A stretch of DNA of 64,000 nt, from contig MU057357.1 of NCBI GenBank assembly GCA_013239625.1, forward strand, positions 21,713,298 to 21,777,297, written 5' to 3'. Numbering within the stretch: position 1 is the stretch's first letter; every line of letters starts with the position of its first letter. The translations under genes were made by a program, and so were the position numbers. A model generated the notes under the pieces. It saw nothing but the letters and a program-made list of their open reading frames with translations. It was not told the origin of the DNA and ran no database searches. Origin of the DNA: Lama guanicoe (taxonomy: Eukaryota). Below, one piece after another: positions 6,797 to 44,900 of this stretch.

Positions 6797-7427
6797 NNNN
6801 NNNNNNNNNNNNNNNNNNNNNNNNNNNNNNNNNNNNNNNNNNNNNNNNNNNNNNNNNNNNNNNNNNNNNNNNNNNNNNNNNNNNNNNNNNNNNNNNNNNN
6901 NNNNNNNNNCCTACCCCGCCTTGTTCACTGTCGCTCTGTCCACTCTTAACTGTCCCAGCTGCCGTCACGGCTGCCGCTGCTGTTGCCACCCCTCCCACCT
7001 TTACTGAGCNNNNNNNNNNNNNNNNNNNNNNNNNNNNNNNNNNNNNNNNNNNNNNNNNNNNNNNNNNNNNNNNNNNNNNNNNNNNNNNNNNNNNNNNNNN
7101 NNNNNNNNNNNNNNNNNNNNNNNNNNNNNNNNNNNNNNNNNNNNNNNNNNNNNNNNNNNNNNNNNNNNNNNNNAGAGAAGAGCTGGTCGGCTGGAGGCTG
7201 AGGCAGGTCTCAGATAGCAACTTGTCCCGAGAGAGCAAAATGTCCACTGCTGAGCTCTTCTCGCAGATGGTCGCTTCCACTGGGAGCAGCAGGGGGTCTA
7301 AGTGCCGGAAGCTCTCCTCAATGCACGGGGGAGAAGAAGCGTGCAGGAAGCAGTCCAAGTCCTCCCCGAAGGTCTCCGAGATCCTCCTAGGCTCCGTCTG
7401 TAGGTAGCGTTCCAATTCAAGGCATGT
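6797..7427 (-). CDS. KLF7: KLF7 coding exon 2 (end of activation domain, Ser/Ala-rich region, NLS and zinc finger 1; partly masked)
   Basis: Minus-strand translation TCLELERYLQTEPRRISETFGEDLDCFLHASSPPCIEESFRHLDPLLLPVEATICEKSSAVDILLSRDKLLSETCLSLQPTSSS...SVKVGGVATAAAAVTAAGTVKSGQSDSEQGGVG is recognisable as KLF7 from about residue 35. A polypyrimidine tract and ctgcag|ACATGC give a phase-0 acceptor at 7428/7427. The 3' end lies in the N-run 6754-6909; 6797 is inferred from the recalled 631-nt human exon. Confidence 0.96.
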
Positions 7428-10129
7428 CTGCAGAGGGGAAGGAGAGAGGGAGAGAAACAGCCATCAGAGGCAGAGAACACCACGGGACCACATGCTGACA
7501 GGCAGAGGAAGACACGGGAAGGAATAGAGAACATTTCATGGCTCGTTATCTGAAACTCTCATGTTGAAAGGGCTGACCTTGTTATTTTCTCCCTGGACAC
7601 TTCTGATGGGTTCATAAGGGTCACATATGAGCTCAACTATTATAATTGATGGGGAACTGGAAACCCAGAAGGGCTATCTTACACCATCAAGTTCCCTGAG
7701 AACATTCGATGTTAAAATGATCTCATGCCCAACAATTCAGTTCAGCAGGTGAGATGCTCGGGGCCTCCCTAGGAGTTCCCATGAAAGCAAGAAGCAAATA
7801 GAATCAGACAAGGCTTCCATATCAAGATAGGACTCCCCACAGTCCAACTTCACTTTTCAAAAAGACTTTTTGCAAGTTACAAAAATAAGTCAGTTTTCCA
7901 ACTCGCTCTGAAAGCATAAACGATGCCCACCCAAACTAAGATGTGACTTCAGCCAACAGCAAGTCCTGCCCTGGGAATGGATTCCCTAACCAGTAGGGAT
8001 GGACATTGTTCTAAAGAACGCCTCTTATAAAACCTTTGATGCACAAGACAAAACCCCTGTTGTTTATAGAAAGTTATTCAGAATACAGTTGCTACTCATT
8101 GTGGGGCAAGGAGCGTGAGTCCCATCACAATAGTTTAACATCTCTGACTATGTGATAAAAATAAGTTCAGACACAGCTACCTGAATTGGTAAAGATAAGA
8201 CACAATCTATTTCAATATAAAGTTCTTCCCTGGTAAAGAAATGAGGGGAAAAAAACCCAAAAAGTTTAGAGTTTCAACAAATCTTCATCCATGGTGCTCA
8301 GAAGTCTTTGTAAGATGGTGGAAGTGCTTTTACAAAAAAGCGGATATTTAAGTTTGTAATCTAAAAGCTCTTCTCATTTAAAATCCTACTCTTCCAGAAT
8401 TCGGTAGAAAATCACGATGCTAACTCATGCCATCCATTCAATTTGCTCTAACTTCTGGGCTTCAACAAAGAAACACTGATGGCAAGTTTAAAATGTGACT
8501 AGCTCCTAATTTACTGCCTCCGTAGAGCTTCTACGTTTTCAACCAGTGTTCTGATTCTAGGCTTTTATGCTGTGAAGAATATATTTTAATGATATACCTA
8601 GTTGTGTTGTATCTGTCAAGGATTTTATTTTGGTGACATTTCAAAAGATTGGTTTTTACTCAGCCTTCTGGTAAAACCCTGCATTCCTGAATAAGAAAAA
8701 CAGACTTTTAACGATGAATCACCTTTGGGTCTCACTGTTGATTTTCAACAGTATAAACTAATGAATGGTTCCAATCTTCATTCAGCACTCAGTTCATTCA
8801 ACTACTGTGCTCACAGCAAGGTGCAAGGCTTTCTATGTGTTAGAAGGAGAAGCCACAGAAATAGATTCATGTGATGTAGGTGCAGAATAAACAATTACAA
8901 GCTAAAAATTACATGAATTTACAAGCAGGTGATACTAAATAACATAATAATAAAGTATGTTGATAAGTTCCTGGGGGATGAGTGGACAATGAATTCTACA
9001 TAACATGGAGGTATTAATCAAGGAAAGCTTATTGGAAAAGTAACTTTGATTCTATTTACTTATTGATTAAATAATAACTCTTGCTGAGAAGCTTCTCATC
9101 ACTTTAAATTCAAAACCAACATTACCACCTTCTCAGATCTAGGAATCTACCTTATCCTTATTTGCCCCTTTTCTGAATTCCATGTTTCAAAGATTTTCCC
9201 TTTCCTTTTTCCATCTCAATGCTAGAAATTACCCTTTACTTCTTTCCAATATTGAAACCCTTGGTCTTAGCTCCAATCAATTCACTTCTGAATTTTATAA
9301 GATATCACCCCTGAAACCTCCCTTAAACCTCCCCTTCCCTTTTTAAACCATCATCTACCAAGCACAGTGTCTGCCACTCAACAGGTACACAATGCCTATC
9401 AAATCAACTTTACACTGTTATTTTGAACATTCTATTCTACTCCACTCCTCAAAGGCCATCTGATGACCCTAACCTGGACTAGGCTGAGGCTAGCAATCCT
9501 AGAAATGACCACTAATACATGTTCTGGAATACAACTGTAATGCTCCTTGAGCTTTGCTTACAGAGCAGCACCAGACTTCTGAGACACAGATATGTTTCAG
9601 GTAGAAGTCAGCTGAATCATGGGTTACAAGAGGTCCTTGAGGCAGTTCCCTGCCTCACACACAAGGACTATTTCTTACCCACAGTCACCAATGTCTATGG
9701 ACAAAGCTTTCAAATACCATGTGCTCTTACATAGTTTCTAGCTCAAAGATTCAAAAGTCACTAAGAAATTGTGATTGTTAGTAAGCTCAGATCTCTTCAT
9801 ATTCAGATTTTTAAGGAACAGATATTCTAATGCATTTATATACATACTTTTCAGGGAGGATTAAAAAATAACCCACCCAGTATGCCCTAGTTTGCATCCC
9901 AGAGTACATGGATCACACTAATGATCTAAAGATGGAGATACTTCCCATCACTAAAATGTGGGAAAATCTGGATCACTTAAGAGAGGCTATCACTTGCAGT
10001 CCTAACACAAGGCATTCTTATTCCACCTGAGAGTTACAGAAGCATGAGTGCCCATCAGTATGTGCTGAATAGACCTCTGAAATCATGATGGAATTATTTT
10101 TGTCTTGAGAAATCCACTTCTTAAAATAT

Positions 10130-12855: not shown

Positions 12856-15800
12856 ATTTGGTTTTGAAAATAATCACCCTGAAATCTTTTAAAATACTCT
12901 CTCCATTCTGTTCGCAGCCTTCTTGTTGAAGGATGCTTATTAAAATTGATAATCCAAGACTTAGTTTAAAAAAAGAAAAAAATTCAAACCTATTACTGCC
13001 ATGTCTGCTACTTCAATAGGCTCCAAAGGCAGACGTTGACAGAAAACAGGATAACCCAAGTCTTGTAGCACAAAATAAGCTCATCAAAATCTCCCTGCTG
13101 TTGGCAGCAGATAGTTACCTTCACAGGATCAGCAAATAAGAAATTTGGTCATATGTGGGCATGATGATGCCAAGGTCACCAAACAGCTCTTGTTCAACCT
13201 GTCCTTATCTCATCATAATTTACATGAAAACTGCCAGTGAGGACTGCAAATGAATCCAGGCAATTTGGCCATTTCCCCTACAGCCCTCCGATAAAGGGTT
13301 TCCCTCACCTAATTTTTCTCTCCTTACTTTACTTCATGTCCATATGATTGACACGAGCTTTCATTTTCTCTTCGACTAATCATTCTTTCATTCAAAGTTC
13401 AGCACAAAGTCTCTCTCTTTCAGGAAGCCTGGTCTAGGAAAAAATAGAGTTAAAAAAATATGCTGATTGCCAAGTGCTGAGAAACACCCCTCCTCAATCC
13501 TGCACAATTAAACAGTATCTTCAAAATGAATCTAAGAGTCTGCCAACTGGTGGTATGTCTGGCTTACTAAGATTGTGATCGCCTAAAAGCAACGATCATA
13601 TTGCCTATATCACGTAAGTCTCAGACAATAAAAATAATCTTTTAGAGCTAAATTCGACCTCTGCTATCTCAGATGGGACATATACCTAAGTGTTTGAAGT
13701 GGTGTAGAGTTGTTAAGAACTTTCCAAAAAATGAGCTAGAATCACTTCACAAGTCCTGTCCACCACCACCACTGTAACTACACCCACTGTTTGGTTGGGG
13801 CAAACTAAAGTCCAGGGTCCTCAAAAGCCACTGGTCCACATTCTCACCACCACTCATTACCTATGTCATTATGAGTAGTTATTTGGAGTCTTTGGATTCA
13901 CCTATACTTGAGTTGGTGAATGAAAAAAAAAAGAAATTGTATTTTGCTAGTGATTTTTTTTCTGGAATAATAGAGTCAGTGAAATACAATGCCACCTACT
14001 ACTACCTATGTTTGTAATCAATTATCAGGGATTTGTATTCCCTTTAGCCAGCTGCCCTTCATTCCAAGCATTCTACCTATTTCGTTCACCTAAAAGACCC
14101 AAGAGTTAGAAGAACAAAGAGATAAAAGAAATTGGGGAAAGAATACAGATGCAAAAATATGGGGAGATATAACGTTCTCCTTTGTGGAAACCTGTAAAGT
14201 CATGCTTCTTCTGAGATCAGACCTTGACCCGATGATGCTGATGATAATGATGCTGCTGGTGCTCCGGCAAGGAAGGGGTGGACTTCGGTTCCCAGGAAGC
14301 ATGCTCACCCAGGTAACTGCATACGCAGGTGAACTACACTTGGCTGCCCATGGGAGCCCCTTCCTGACATTTATTATGTGTGTTTTTGTCACGTGCTATT
14401 AACCATGGTGCCACAGTCCCCAAAGAGTCTGAAGGATAGAAACAGGGAGACGAATCCCTTACCTTTCTCCTGGGAGTGTCCTAAAGCTTAATTACTTTTT
14501 TGTGCTTTAAAACCATCACATACATCCCAGAATGAAAATTCGAAGTGACAAAACAAGCTAGTGACAGTAGGGTAATCTGGGTTTCTTTGGTAAAGCAACC
14601 TCCTAAAATACTCATTCTTTCCAGTTTATTAACTACACTCACACTTCACGTTTTTTAGCAAAATCTTTATTCTTCTGACTCCTGAAACCAACTTGAAAAA
14701 CTCTCTAGGACTGCAAAGATTGATATTTATGGGAACTTTGTGATTTTTTTTTCTCCCTTCAAAGGATGATATGATATAATGGTTCTGACACATTTCTAGT
14801 CTTTTAAAATTAGGTCAGAGTTGAAAGATGGGAAAGGAAGTGGAAAACATGGCCAGGGAGTTCTGCACAATTTTTCTCCAGGGTTGGAGGAAGACGATGG
14901 AAGCACCAGGATTAATCAGCTCAGTGAGCCTATGGGAGAACCTCACACATCAAGCAACTCATTTTTCTGTCCATTTTCCTGGGTTTCAATATCTCAAAAG
15001 CCGGTTTGAGGAGAAGAATGCAGCAATGAAATGTACTCGTCGCAGAGAGGTTGCATGAACCAGTGAAAAGAATCGACCTTGTAAGAAAAACCTAGAAAGT
15101 GATTTCTCTAATTAATATTCACTTTTTCTTGACTTTCATCGCCAGAAAATATTAGGATGGGAGGTAAGGAGAGTATAAGTTTTGTCTAGAAATTGTGGGT
15201 AAGCAAGGATATGGTATAAGTGAAAATCTCTTACTGCATTTTTTAGCTATTAGGTTAAAAAAAACCCACATCAATAGCACACCCCAGAGGTACAACAATA
15301 TGACACCCCACTGTCAGAACTGCTGAGCCCCAAAGAATAACCACAGCACTGTGACCACTGTAAGACCGCATTCCTTCCCACTGTTTCTCACATCCACTGG
15401 TTGCTGGAGCTGCAACCAAATTAAATATTTCCCTCTAGTAATCTGTAAATTCGGAGAGACAACGCTGTGAAAATTAGCGGAATTCTAAACACACATGAAA
15501 GTTGGGAAATGCCTACGAAAACCTCTTCAGTGTTCCTCCTCCTCAAGCTATTTTCAACATACAAAGAAACTATTTGTTGTATATTTTTCCTCGGGGAGGC
15601 TGGGGAGGAAGGGGACAAGATTAAAGGCCTGGGGAGAGGGTGATGTCTTTGAAATAAGCAGCCTCAAATACTCCTTTCATCTCCCAAGGATTCCTTAGTT
15701 GCAGCGTATGAAAGAAATCCCCCAAACGACTCAAATCCAAGTTCAGTGTCAAGGCAAGTTTCAAAGCCGCATAACCTGGGCAGAGTTGGGGGCCAGGTCT

Positions 15801-16960
15801 TCTGCTCCTTGAAGGAAGGCACAGGGTCCCACACAACCTCCGACAACTTAGAAAAGCATTTTCCTCCTTCACAGTGTCTGGACCCTTAAAATCAAGTGTC
15901 CACTAGAGATAAAGGGACCCATACCTGAGAGGCCTTTCTATCCTGGTTCAGGGCTATTTTTCCATATGTTGCTTTTCAGAACATACCAACTCTAAGGCTA
16001 CTGCTCTGGCCTCTGCTCACAATGACTGCACCTACCCTCCCTCCGCCTTAAGAACAGTCCCTAGCTATTACTTGGCCACTGGATTAAGACTAAATTCAAC
16101 TTCTGACTGGTGGAGAGACACCGCTGCCCTTCACAGCCAAATCACCTAAGATGCTGGCATCCACTGTCACCTCTTCTCCCACCTAAGCCTCGATGTAGCC
16201 TGATATACACTGGAGGAAATCCCATTTGTTATTTATAGCTTGAAAATAAGTCTCATTAGATGTCCCAGCTTCGGTCATTATATTTTCATGGACAAAATAT
16301 AAATCATGCCTTAATAGTCAACGAAAAATCATCCTACACTAAAGCAAAGACCTAGATATTGGCTGAAAGTGTGGTTTAGGAAAGAAAAAATGCAGACGGG
16401 ACACCCGTACAGGCAAAACCCATCACTGTACATAAGAGCGCCAGTCAGTCCTCACTCAAGAAGGAGGGCGCTCCGTCCAGCAACTCATGAGAGCCCAGGG
16501 GCTCGGGAGGAGGCTCCCCTCTGAGGGGTGATGGCGTCCCAGGAACAACAATGGTCCTGACAGTTGTTCAGTTTCACCATTCATTTTCCATAAAGAGCAG
16601 TTTTTTTTGCGACGAGCAAAGTGGGGTGGGGTGGGGCAGGGGAGCCTTCATGGAAAACCCAGACCCACATTATCTGCCTCTTCTTCCAAAATGCAAACAC
16701 AAAACAAAAAATTTTAAACTCACCCATCTCACCCTCCTCCCCCAACGGGTCTTGCCAAAAGAAACAAATAAACATTAATTGGCTAGAGAGCCTTCATTCA
16801 AACCCAAATTACTGAAAAACACAGTAACAGAGAAAGGTCTGACAAGGGGTTATTAATCCTGTTTTACAACCCGCTCTTCCTCACCCCCCACCCGCTCCCG
16901 TTAACTTTGCACACACATGCACACACCCTCCCCAAACTCCCCAAGCCCCTCTGCACTGAG

Positions 16961-16978
16961 TGGCCAAGATGGGAACAT
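16961..16978 (-). other. KLF7: Candidate homologue of a KLF7 alternative first coding exon (MFPSWP), copy 1
   Basis: Minus strand reads ATG TTC CCA TCT TGG CCA, ending in phase 0 and so compatible with the exon 2 acceptor. It matches a recalled human alternative N-terminus. The following bases are CTCAGT (no GT). Confidence 0.6.
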
Positions 16979-18570
16979 GCCGAACCCATTACATCATCTC
17001 CCTTTCCTCTCCCAAATCACTTGCACAGGCTGACTCAGGCTACTGGGTTTTTGTTGTGTGGTTTTTTTTTTAAAGCAAACTCATTTCATTGACTCCCTTC
17101 TGGAACATTGTTCTACCCTTCTCAGTTGGGTTAACGAAATATATCCTCCTCTACCCTCCATAAAAAACACATACACGTACATGATTGCTTTTTTAACCCT
17201 GAAGCACAGTTGTCCACATATACAATACAATCAAAGCCGCATAACCTGGGCAGAGTTGGGGGCCAGGTCTTCTGCTCCTTGAAGGAAGGCACAGGGTCCC
17301 ACACAACCTCCGACAACTTAGAAAAGCATTTTCCTCCTTCACAGTGTCTGGACCCTTAAAATCAAGTGTCCACTAGAGATAAAGGGACCCATACCTGAGA
17401 GGCCTTTCTATCCTGGTTCAGGGCTATTTTTCCATATGTTGCTTTTCAGAACATACCAACTCTAAGGCTACTGCTCTGGCCTCTGCTCACAATGACTGCA
17501 CCTACCCTCCCTCCGCCTTAAGAACAGTCCCTAGCTATTACTTGGCCACTGGATTAAGACTAAATTCAACTTCTGACTGGTGGAGAGACACCGCTGCCCC
17601 TTCACAGCCAAATCACCTAAGATGCTGGCATCCACTGTCACCTCTTCTCCCACCTAAGCCTCGATGTAGCCTGATATACACTGGAGGAAATCCCATTTGT
17701 TATTTACAGCTTGAAAATAAGTCTCATTAGATGTCCCAGCTTCGGTCATTATATTTTCATGGACAAAATATAAATCATGCCTTAATAGTCAACGAAAAAT
17801 CATCCTACACTAAAGCAAAGACCTAGATATTGGCTGAAAGTGTGGTTTAGGAAAGAAAAAATGCAGACGGGACACCCGTACAGGCAAAACCCATCACTGT
17901 ACATAAGAGCGCCAGTCAGTCCTCACTCAAGAAGGAGGGCGCTCCGTCCAGCAACTCATGAGAGCCCAGGGGCTCGGGAGGAGGCTCCCCTCTGAGGGGT
18001 GATGGCGTCCCAGGAACAACAATGGTCCTGACAGTTGTTCAGTTTCACCATTCATTTTCCATAAAGAGCAGTTTTTTTTGCGACGAGCGCNNNNNNNNNN
18101 NNNNNNNNNNNNNNNNNNNNNNNNNNNNNNNNNNNNNNNNNNNNNNNNNNNNNNNNNNNNNNNNNNNNNNNNNNNNNNNNNNNNNNNNNNNNNNNNNNNN
18201 NNNNNNNNNNNNNNNNNNNNNNGGCTGGGGCTGGGGGTGGATGGGGCAGGGGAGCCTTCATGGAAAACCCAGACCCACATTATCTGCCTCTTCTTCCAAA
18301 ATGCAAACACAAAACAAAAAATTTTAAACTCACCCATCTCACCCTCCTCCCCCAACGGGTCTTGCCAAAAGAAACAAATAAACATTAATTGGCTAGAGAG
18401 CCTTCATTCAAACCCAAATTACTGAAAAACACAGTAACAGAGAAAGGTCTGACAAGGGGTTATTAATCCTGTTTTACAACCCGCTCTTCCTCACCCCCCA
18501 CCCGCTCCCGTTAACTTTGCACACACATGCACACACCCTCCCCAAACTCCCCAAGCCCCTCTGCACTGAG

Positions 18571-18588
18571 TGGCCAAGATGGGAACAT
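18571..18588 (-). other. KLF7: Candidate homologue of a KLF7 alternative first coding exon (MFPSWP), copy 2
   Basis: Identical sequence in the second unit of the tandem duplication. Confidence 0.55.
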
Positions 18589-18837
18589 GCCGAACCCATT
18601 ACATCATCTCCCTTTCCTCTCCCAAATCACTTGCACAGGCTGACTCAGGCTACTGGGTTTTTGTTGTGTGGTTTTTTTTTTAAAGCAAACTCATTTCATT
18701 GACTCCCTTCTGGAACATTGTTCTACCCTTCTCAGTTGGGTTAACGAAATATATCCTCCTCTACCCTTCATAAAAAACACATACACGTACATGATTGCTT
18801 TTTTAACCCTGAAGCACAGTTGTCCACATATACAATA

Positions 18838-18853
18838 CACACACACACACACA

Positions 18854-41900: not shown

Positions 41901-44900
41901 TCTGAGGAAATAAAGAAGAACACTTTTTGTTTCAATGTGTAAAACATTACAACCTCACTGCCTATCCAACCCTCGCAAGAAATTTTAAAATCCTTCAGAA
42001 AAGATTTTCCTGAATTGGCACATGGAACTGCTAGTTTCATGCAGTAACTTTGTTGGCAAGTTGTCAGAGACAAAGCATTTCACCATTTCTCCTTTGATGC
42101 TCCGCATAAAACCCAGCTCGATCATCCATCCAACTCCCTACCCTCTTTACCCTCATCTGTTCTCATTTAGGTGACAGCATTCTTTTTCATTTGGCTGGAG
42201 TTGTAATTAGGGGCTTTTGTTTTTGGGGGTTTTTTTTCAGTAAAGTGTACATTTTCCAGATTACCACACATTATTAAAAATGGGAAAGAGATTAAATTAC
42301 ACACATTAGCTTTCTCCAAGATGTTCAATAGCATGGTTTAGGACCCAGACAATTCCAAAATTCCATGTACTAGTACTGTTCAAAGGAGAAAGGGGATTGT
42401 CTTGCCTCTCTTTAAGGAGAAAGAGGGAAAGAGAGAGGAGGAAAGATGAAAAGTGACTCAAAATATATCCAGAACAACCATTTGATGCAAAGCAAGCAAA
42501 CTGATTTGAGCAACTGAAAGAGTCCTGAGTCTGGGACCAACATCCATGCTAACAACAGCTGGTTCAATGCCTTATCTGGCTTCAACAATCACTTGGTCCA
42601 ACCCTAGTGTTTTAGAGTTGAAGAAACCAAGACTCTTTCAGGATTTGAAATACTAAGATTCTCTGCATCTAGCTTTGGTATAAGGCCTGGGGCCTGACTT
42701 TCAATATGACCCTCAGGAAATGTCGATAAACCCATATTCAGAAACAGATATTGCATATGGCTCCACATTAATTATTTCAATTACCTATAATCATTTCCGA
42801 ATGACACAGACATGGATGCTGTTTCCTGGCCATTATGGACATGTGTATTCACGCTGTACACTCATCTGCCCTGAAAGGGTCACCAGCCCCAATATGCCAT
42901 TAGCTAAAAAAAGCCTAACAGAACTTGATAAATCTCAAGCACGTGTTATAAACAATGTCACAACAAAGTGGGTAAATACAGAGAGGCAAGGTCAGTGTTC
43001 AAACACTCATGGGACTTAAAATCTCTTTTTGGGCAATTGTGTTCTAATGCTGTATTACTTAATTTTGAACATGCTCCCTCTCCCCTACTGAAGTCAAGCT
43101 CATAGAGGGTAGAAGCTATATCCAATTAAACCCTGCAGCACCCAAACAGTGTTCTTCATATAACTAGAATGAAGGAATGAAGTACTAACCGTGAAATATT
43201 TTCCATATTTTAATATAAACAGAGAAAACCCCACAAGATGTGACTGGGTGCACCCACCAGCTCAATCAGGAATGGTATCACTATGAAGTCAGAAGTCACC
43301 CACACCTTCAGCAGGTTGACATTGGACCCATATTCTGAGGCTGCTGCTGCCCCCGAGCTGTACACCTGTGTGTCAAACACACGGGGGAAGGGGCAGCTGG
43401 AATGGAGACTGCAATGGCCATAACACACTTAGCAGGGCCAAGTTCTCAGGGTCACAACAAAATACCAAGTGAGGAAAACAAAAAGGACTCAAGGAAGAAG
43501 AAACGATTCTCTAAATTAACAGCAGAAAATGAAGGCAAAGAAGAAAAAAAAAAAGATCATGACCAAATTTACGTGAAACCAGGTCCTAGTTACACAGTAT
43601 TTGATTTGATTTGGAGAACTCTTAAATTGAACAAGGATAGTTTCTCATGTGGATGCTCTAAAATGAACACACAATGTAATTGGGCAGAGGAGTGTTTCTA
43701 AACTTGCGGCTGTCATACGTTACATTAGTGTATCTTGTCCCACTAACTTTAACACCATTCTTACTTGTAGAGCTTCCTAATCACTCTGCTTGGTAAGATT
43801 TGGCAATTTGGGTTAAAATATTTCCACCAGTTTATGCTAAGCAAGCACTTAGCTGATTCGGGAAAACAAAGAGGTTTATTTTAGAGAGATAAATCTCCAC
43901 CTCCTCACCCTTCTGGCACTGCTCAGGTTACGTTGGGGAGCTGTCCTCAACTTTCAGCAAATCCTAATTCCAGCGTACAGGCTGGTAGATTGTGTGAACG
44001 GGAACCACAGAGGCATTCTCTGCATTCACCAATCATGGAGTCCAGTGAAGGTGGTGAAAACCTCCTGCACGCTACTACAGGCTGCAGAGATGGGGGTGAC
44101 TGCCAACCCGTCTGGTCAGCTATCCTATCACATGGGCCAGCTGGGACTGGCCAGAGGAAACGGTTTTCCCTCCTCAATATGCATAGAGTGATTAAAGAAG
44201 GCTGCACTGCCATCTTGTACTCAAAAAGTTAAAATACAGAAATTCTCTGAAGGGAGAAGAATCTGAAGATTTATAAGAGACCGACTACTAAAAGCTCCAT
44301 TAGGACCCTCTCTAAACTATTCCCGTTTAAGTGGAGAAGCAAATAGCCCCCACTGGCATTTATATTTAGAATGGGTGGGGAGAGAGGAAGAGCCCATTTT
44401 GACCGCTGAAGGTCTCTGACATACCCATACATAAATCATTTCAGGGTGAGGTGTCACAGTGCATCTTCCACTCTGCCCTTTAAATGGATTGGACCCCAAC
44501 ATCCCATTCTCCTCAGGGGAGGGAGTGGGGGTGGGAGGTTCATGGAGAACAAAGAAGCCACCACTTCCTTTATCCCCCCAACTAAAGACAGATGTAGTAA
44601 AAATATCTGCGCACACTTTAAAATACCAAACTGCAAACAGGTAGACTAAATGATAATGTTTGAGAGCCCCCAAACCTACACAAAGATGTATCTATTAAAA
44701 AGAACATGGAAATGAATCTACTAAAGAAAGGCTAAGTATGTGATTGATGGCATTCACATGTGCTTTCATTTGTAAGGCTACATTTATTTAGTGAGTGCAT
44801 CCTTATAAAGAAAATCTGGATAACAGGGGGAGTTCTAATTTTATTTTTTTCATCTACCAAGTCACTGTTTCAAATTTTTAAAAAATAGATTTATGATAAC

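Follow-up and report, generated by a model that had tools for sequence, protein, structure and literature searches.

A KLF7 intron 1 site in Lama guanicoe matching the start of human isoform 4, and a probable splice-site gain in great apes

The stretch of DNA analysed here (the window) comprises 64,000 nucleotides of Lama guanicoe (hereafter camel; contig MU057357.1) and contains exon 2 and intron 1 sequence of KLF7 on the minus strand. Exon 2 starts at 7427 (acceptor 7418-7445, minus strand, placed by sequence and by protein match) behind a polypyrimidine tract and CAG, and opens in phase 0 with TCLELE; its readable part (84 residues) shows 100% identity to a Camelus dromedarius KLF7 record, one of 126 hits among 205 candidates, and further downstream L008 and L007 contain exons 3 and 4, with a 100% match over the aligned parts. 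At a distance of 9.5 kb from this acceptor, the codons for MFPSWP stand on the minus strand at 16978-16961 and continue with CTCAGT (16960-16955), which direct reading of the letters bore out for an earlier, sequence-only reading of this DNA, and the six codons can be joined to the phase-0 acceptor of exon 2, as that reading had also proposed. CTCAGT itself is no donor in camel; translated in frame it gives Leu-Ser, the residues found as codons 7 and 8 in gene models of monkeys and siamang. Without use of a donor nearby, the frame that starts at the MFPSWP ATG runs for 25 codons (16978-16901) and would be an upstream open reading frame within a longer exon; a further ATG, out of frame and in a favorable start context with G at both -3 and +4, is found at 16989-16987, 11 nt upstream. 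Matches expected by chance in the 40,608 readable intron bases amount to 8.6e-5 for MFPSWP and 8.9e-7 for MFPSWPLS, so that the occurrence of this peptide in KLF7 intron 1, on the strand of the gene, cannot be attributed to chance.

The human isoform that the sequence-only reading named, in which MFPSWP replaces residues 1 to 34, exists as NP_001257873.1 (isoform 4; P0148), a record of 274 residues common to chimpanzee in which MFPSWP is joined directly to exon 2 and everything from residue 35 of isoform 1 onward is retained unchanged. A partial record with the same start (P0203) represents a UniRef cluster of 8 labelled Hominidae. With the domain limits given in the accessible part of a review (PMC10281879), residues 1-47 for the acidic domain and 59-119 for the MoKA-binding zipper, isoform 4 loses 34 of the 47 acidic residues and keeps the remainder, in agreement with the suggested truncation of the acidic activation domain, and its predicted product retains the zinc fingers. 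The same review, in its accessible text, gives the number of human KLF7 proteins as at least four, does not contain the word "isoform" and reports a higher protein level after deletion of residues 1-76, a result that concerns 1-76 and not 1-34. Methionine occurs in human KLF7 only at positions 1 and 298, and in a Camelus model (P0190) only at 1 and 282; as exon 2 has no ATG, any first exon joined to it must supply one. This sets KLF7 apart from the short isoform of RBM20, which, as far as the available text describes it (PMC13198548), is likewise the product of a regulator gene with a start site in the intron that separates exons 1 and 2, and has a shorter N-terminus, but uses an ATG inside exon 2. 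Human isoform 4 (NP_001257873.1; partial UniProt entry C9JX20) and the camel site share the six residues and the phase-0 join to exon 2. Since the monkey and siamang models carry MFPSWPLS exactly like the camel frame, the camel site is very probably orthologous to the human isoform exon, as had been supposed, and very probably the counterpart of the intron 1 site that gives isoform 4 its start.

The element lies in the first copy (15761-17229) of a near-identical tandem block of about 1.5-1.6 kb, found by comparing the window with itself. The second copy (17231-18839) repeats MFPSWP at 18588-18571 (minus strand), again followed by CTCAGT, exceeds the first by about 140 bases and has a CA microsatellite at its end; there is one extra base at the junction of the two blocks. 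Identity is 99.3-99.8%, the aligned parts differ at six places, three of which cluster beside a run of N in the second copy, and a 301-base probe of the element has exactly two matches in the genome, both in these blocks. The longer second copy, its microsatellite end and the extra junction base resemble a mis-joined assembly, and we lean towards that explanation of the duplication. A systematic false duplication along the scaffold was considered and set aside, as none of 20 flanking 10-kb stretches has an internal repeat of at least 100 bases at 97% identity or more; this result also speaks against a mis-joined assembly. The C at +1 is found in both copies, so the conclusion on the donor holds whether or not the tandem copy is real.

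Directly after codon 6, camel has neither a GT nor a GC donor, both copies reading CCA/CTCAGT, and because of the C at +1 the MFPSWP junction cannot form there as a GT or GC intron. In this the camel site differs from human isoform 4, and the MFPSWP exon is used by none of the six camelid proteins seen (P0001, P0188, P0190, P0198, P0200 and P0224). The sequence-only reading regarded the donor as broken, either lost in this lineage or created in primates by a single substitution. We classified 330 proteins by their N-terminus: 143 have the canonical start, 114 another start, 60 no exon 2 start, 8 begin with MFPxWP, and 5 are of a type that ends the first exon at a downstream donor; species labels are those among the cluster members listed (at most 15 per cluster, with up to 40 read, for clusters of up to 299), and additional MFPxWP records may be present among the remaining members. 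No MFPxWP representative was added by further searches with the first 40 residues of P0149 (114 hits and 4 hits), nor any MFPxWP record, among the members listed, by a second and a third round of cluster look-ups. All eight MFPxWP proteins and all five of the downstream-donor type come from annotation sources, and none from assembled sequencing runs.

Only two of the eight MFPxWP proteins (P0148 and P0203, labelled human, chimpanzee or Hominidae) pass to exon 2 after Pro6. The other six, all from non-great-apes among the members listed, have Leu at position 7, followed by Ser in colobus and mandrill (P0149) and siamang (P0153), by Cys in Eulemur (P0191), Rousettus (P0145) and Pipistrellus (P0141), and by Gly in serow (P0199); the camel frame reads MFPSWPLS. 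A GT straight after Pro6 would encode Val, and Leu codons start with C or T, so lineages with Leu7 have no GT at +1 and +2. The variation of codon 8 among Ser, Cys and Gly suggests a variable +4 position, as would be expected where no selection acts on a donor. Leu7 in siamang, Old World monkeys, lemur, bats and serow, together with the C in camel, points by parsimony to one gain after the gibbon split. The alternative, an ancestral donor that was lost in camelids, would explain why the camel site is one base short of a GT donor with its ATG and frame kept; it would also require that siamang, Old World monkeys, lemur, bats, serow and camel had all lost the donor independently and had all ended up with Leu7, and we regard it as very improbable. 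None of the six non-great-ape proteins has G at +1, a donor being found in no outgroup on either side of the camel branch, and the donor described as broken was likely never present in camel. The other half of the proposal was probably right in assuming a gain and too wide in assigning it to primates, as siamang, Old World monkeys and lemur are also without the donor.

We therefore favor the explanation that the camel no-donor state is likely the ancestral one in mammals and that great apes are the likely group in which the human junction arose; in gibbon, monkeys and other mammals, codon 7 of the predicted proteins indicates indirectly that the donor is absent. Taken as a whole, with the camel site as counterpart, an ancestral state without a donor and a great-ape gain, we consider this explanation probable and the best of those weighed here. 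A change of C to G at +1 would give a weak GT donor in apes, and this donor would convert a small upstream open reading frame into a coding first exon. As the +1 base in apes is read only through protein, the ape junction may instead have arisen by a small deletion or be of a non-standard kind. The gain may also be confined to human, since the human model may have been projected to give the chimpanzee record and the Hominidae cluster. Gain of splice sites in single lineages is a known general class of event in alternative first exons, in which one base change in transcribed intronic sequence yields a donor and a new N-terminus; KLF7 resembles this class, and differs from it in that the base change is deduced from proteins only and the function is putative.

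The six proteins with Leu7 can be read in another way. They join exon 2 in frame after codon 8, which implies a GC donor at a position that in camel reads AGT/GCAGAG (16954-16949, minus strand), and the short coding exon could thus be old and functional in camel as MFPSWPLS; great apes would then only have removed two codons from it, by acquiring a new GT or by deleting 6 nt. The identical open frame and the GC are kept in camel, the peptide varies across species at positions 4 and 8 only, and a junction placed by six separate models may be real. However, when donors are scored by a simple count of matches over seven consensus positions (not a trained model), the GC after 16955 reaches very weak 2/7, whereas GC donors normally need a near-perfect context. 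If the human model was projected onto other species and moved on to the nearest following GT or GC in frame, exactly such models would result, and this is the probable origin of the eight-codon models; none of the six records has a sequencing run as its source, and none of the six camelid proteins seen uses the site. We thus hold an old, functional eight-codon exon to be unlikely. A GT at 16957 that would bring the ATG at 16989 into frame (MGSACSHLGHS) was rejected as well, with 1/7 and with no record that has such a start.

Two further observations concern transcripts of this region. The letters TGCAGA occur both just past the MFPSWPL codons (16955-16949, minus strand) and across the exon 2 acceptor (7432-7427, minus strand); shared letters of this kind can favor template-switch artefacts in cDNA, and a join made in that way would be out of frame. 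In a search of sequencing runs, the stretch was present in 21 of 24 rows, six of which are recorded as RNA with shares of 0.19-0.75 that are not usable as splicing evidence.

Downstream of the six codons, camel has an intact donor that had escaped the sequence-only reading: TGG/GTGAGT (16726-16718, minus strand), with the exon end at 16724, 237 nt beyond the end of MFPSWP. It scores 5/7, a value reached by 6 of the 53 GT sites in 17100-16400, among them a second donor, AGG/GTGAGA, with its exon end at 16733. The segment 16775-16724 (minus strand; MFICFFWQDPLGEEGEM) is the orthologue of the first exons in models of ferret, rabbit and hare (XP_044934587.1, XP_069926405.1, XP_069926406.1 and XP_062046316.1), which map to it and terminate where camel has this donor; the first 13 of 13 residues are identical to the ferret model (P0122). 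The two rabbit records and those of hare and ferret begin MCICFPWQDPLGEGLRL or MFICFFWQDPLGEGMRL, and a Pteropus model (XP_023392021.1), which begins MRL and matches over three residues only, has the same first-exon end, so that this end is found in 5 of the 330 proteins. All five models are in frame, whereas camel is one base out of frame, with the segment in phase 1 at the donor. Camel has no in-frame ATG for this donor, since both open ATGs are in phase 1 and the phase-0 frame is free of ATG back to its stop. As KLF7 has no further Met before its last five residues, a camel transcript using the 16724 donor would be non-coding and would give no KLF7 from an ATG. The older first exon of a putative intronic promoter would extend to this donor, and in such a transcript the MFPSWP ATG would open the 25-codon upstream open reading frame.

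From the models of other species only, we infer that the site is an intronic promoter in camel. The indicators in camel are the intact donor at 16724 and matches to transcription factor motifs, and the models that start here in other mammals are predicted ones. The motifs noted earlier are present where they had been placed, AP-1 TGACTCA at 17031-17037 and RUNX TGTGGTTT at 17057-17064 (both plus strand, as sequence matches to the consensus only), but the window has 10 AP-1 sites (0.16 per kb) and 24 RUNX sites (0.39 per kb), and the pair was chosen after looking; we therefore take it as weak support and do not accept that it proves a promoter. What camel has here is probably a conserved intronic regulatory element, with at most a non-coding first exon. 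At the level of the intron, we also note that intron 1 of mouse Klf7 holds a cluster of retroviral integrations, according to the available part of one report (PMC4098794).

A conserved element of this kind could likewise be the source of low-level splicing noise or of a rare cDNA, so that the human MFPSWP junction would be canonical and no isoform of consequence would exist in any species. In line with this, models of other species start elsewhere in the intron, e.g., near 44502, 29882, 22551, 21112 and 16580, the MFPSWP codons in camel are preceded by an out-of-frame ATG, and a literature search within titles and abstract openings returned nothing on isoform 4 or its origin. On the other hand, the isoform has an accession of the curated type (NP_) and a second, partial UniProt record, and lagomorph and ferret models start in the same element. 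We judge splicing noise slightly less likely than even an old eight-codon exon; it is compatible with the history of a gain in apes.

Other alternative starts were matched in or near the intron. At 44502-44425 (minus strand), 25 of 26 residues match a musk deer KLF7 model (P0201) in its first exon, and ATG, open frame and a phase-0 donor TGG/GTATGT are intact in camel; as a candidate coding alternative first exon, this segment is superior to the MFPSWP site. The start of a cattle model (P0144; MVKLSNCQDHCCSQEA) is matched at 16580-16533 and 18051-18004 (minus strand), a third annotated start less than 400 bases from the element, in which the camel frame diverges after about 16 residues. An 11-residue local match (score 47) to the N-terminus of a finch model (P0087) at 18076-18044 (minus strand) may mark an element conserved to birds or may be due to chance. 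The odd N-terminus of the dromedary model P0001 has its source at 14303-14223 (minus strand); as the window matches it in two different frames, there is a one-base difference in the model or in one of the sequences. The first exon of the Camelus model P0190 (MATPTTPLGLCSQVSFL) is matched exactly, with a CTG/GTGAGT donor, in L018 at 8612-8562 (minus strand), about 79 kb beyond the window end and far upstream of the window.

For camel, these results are of little consequence, as nothing has been lost. Their main value lies in pointing to a probable ape-specific gain of a splice site in human KLF7, an event of a known kind whose function is putative. The curated human isoform is apparently of recent origin; the "orthologues" annotated for monkeys, bats and ruminants may have come from projecting it onto a very weak GC site. 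As a speculation that we consider doubtful, isoform 4 could be an invention of great apes, perhaps of human only, in which a conserved upstream open reading frame at an old intronic promoter became, by one base change, a coding first exon; it would yield a KLF7 with zinc fingers and without most of the acidic activation domain, maybe more stable, and could tune a regulator of neuronal morphogenesis in a way that other mammals cannot. KLF7 is required for neuronal morphogenesis according to the accessible part of PMC1636432, and if the isoform is expressed, it would represent an ape-specific alteration of one base in a factor that this process requires.
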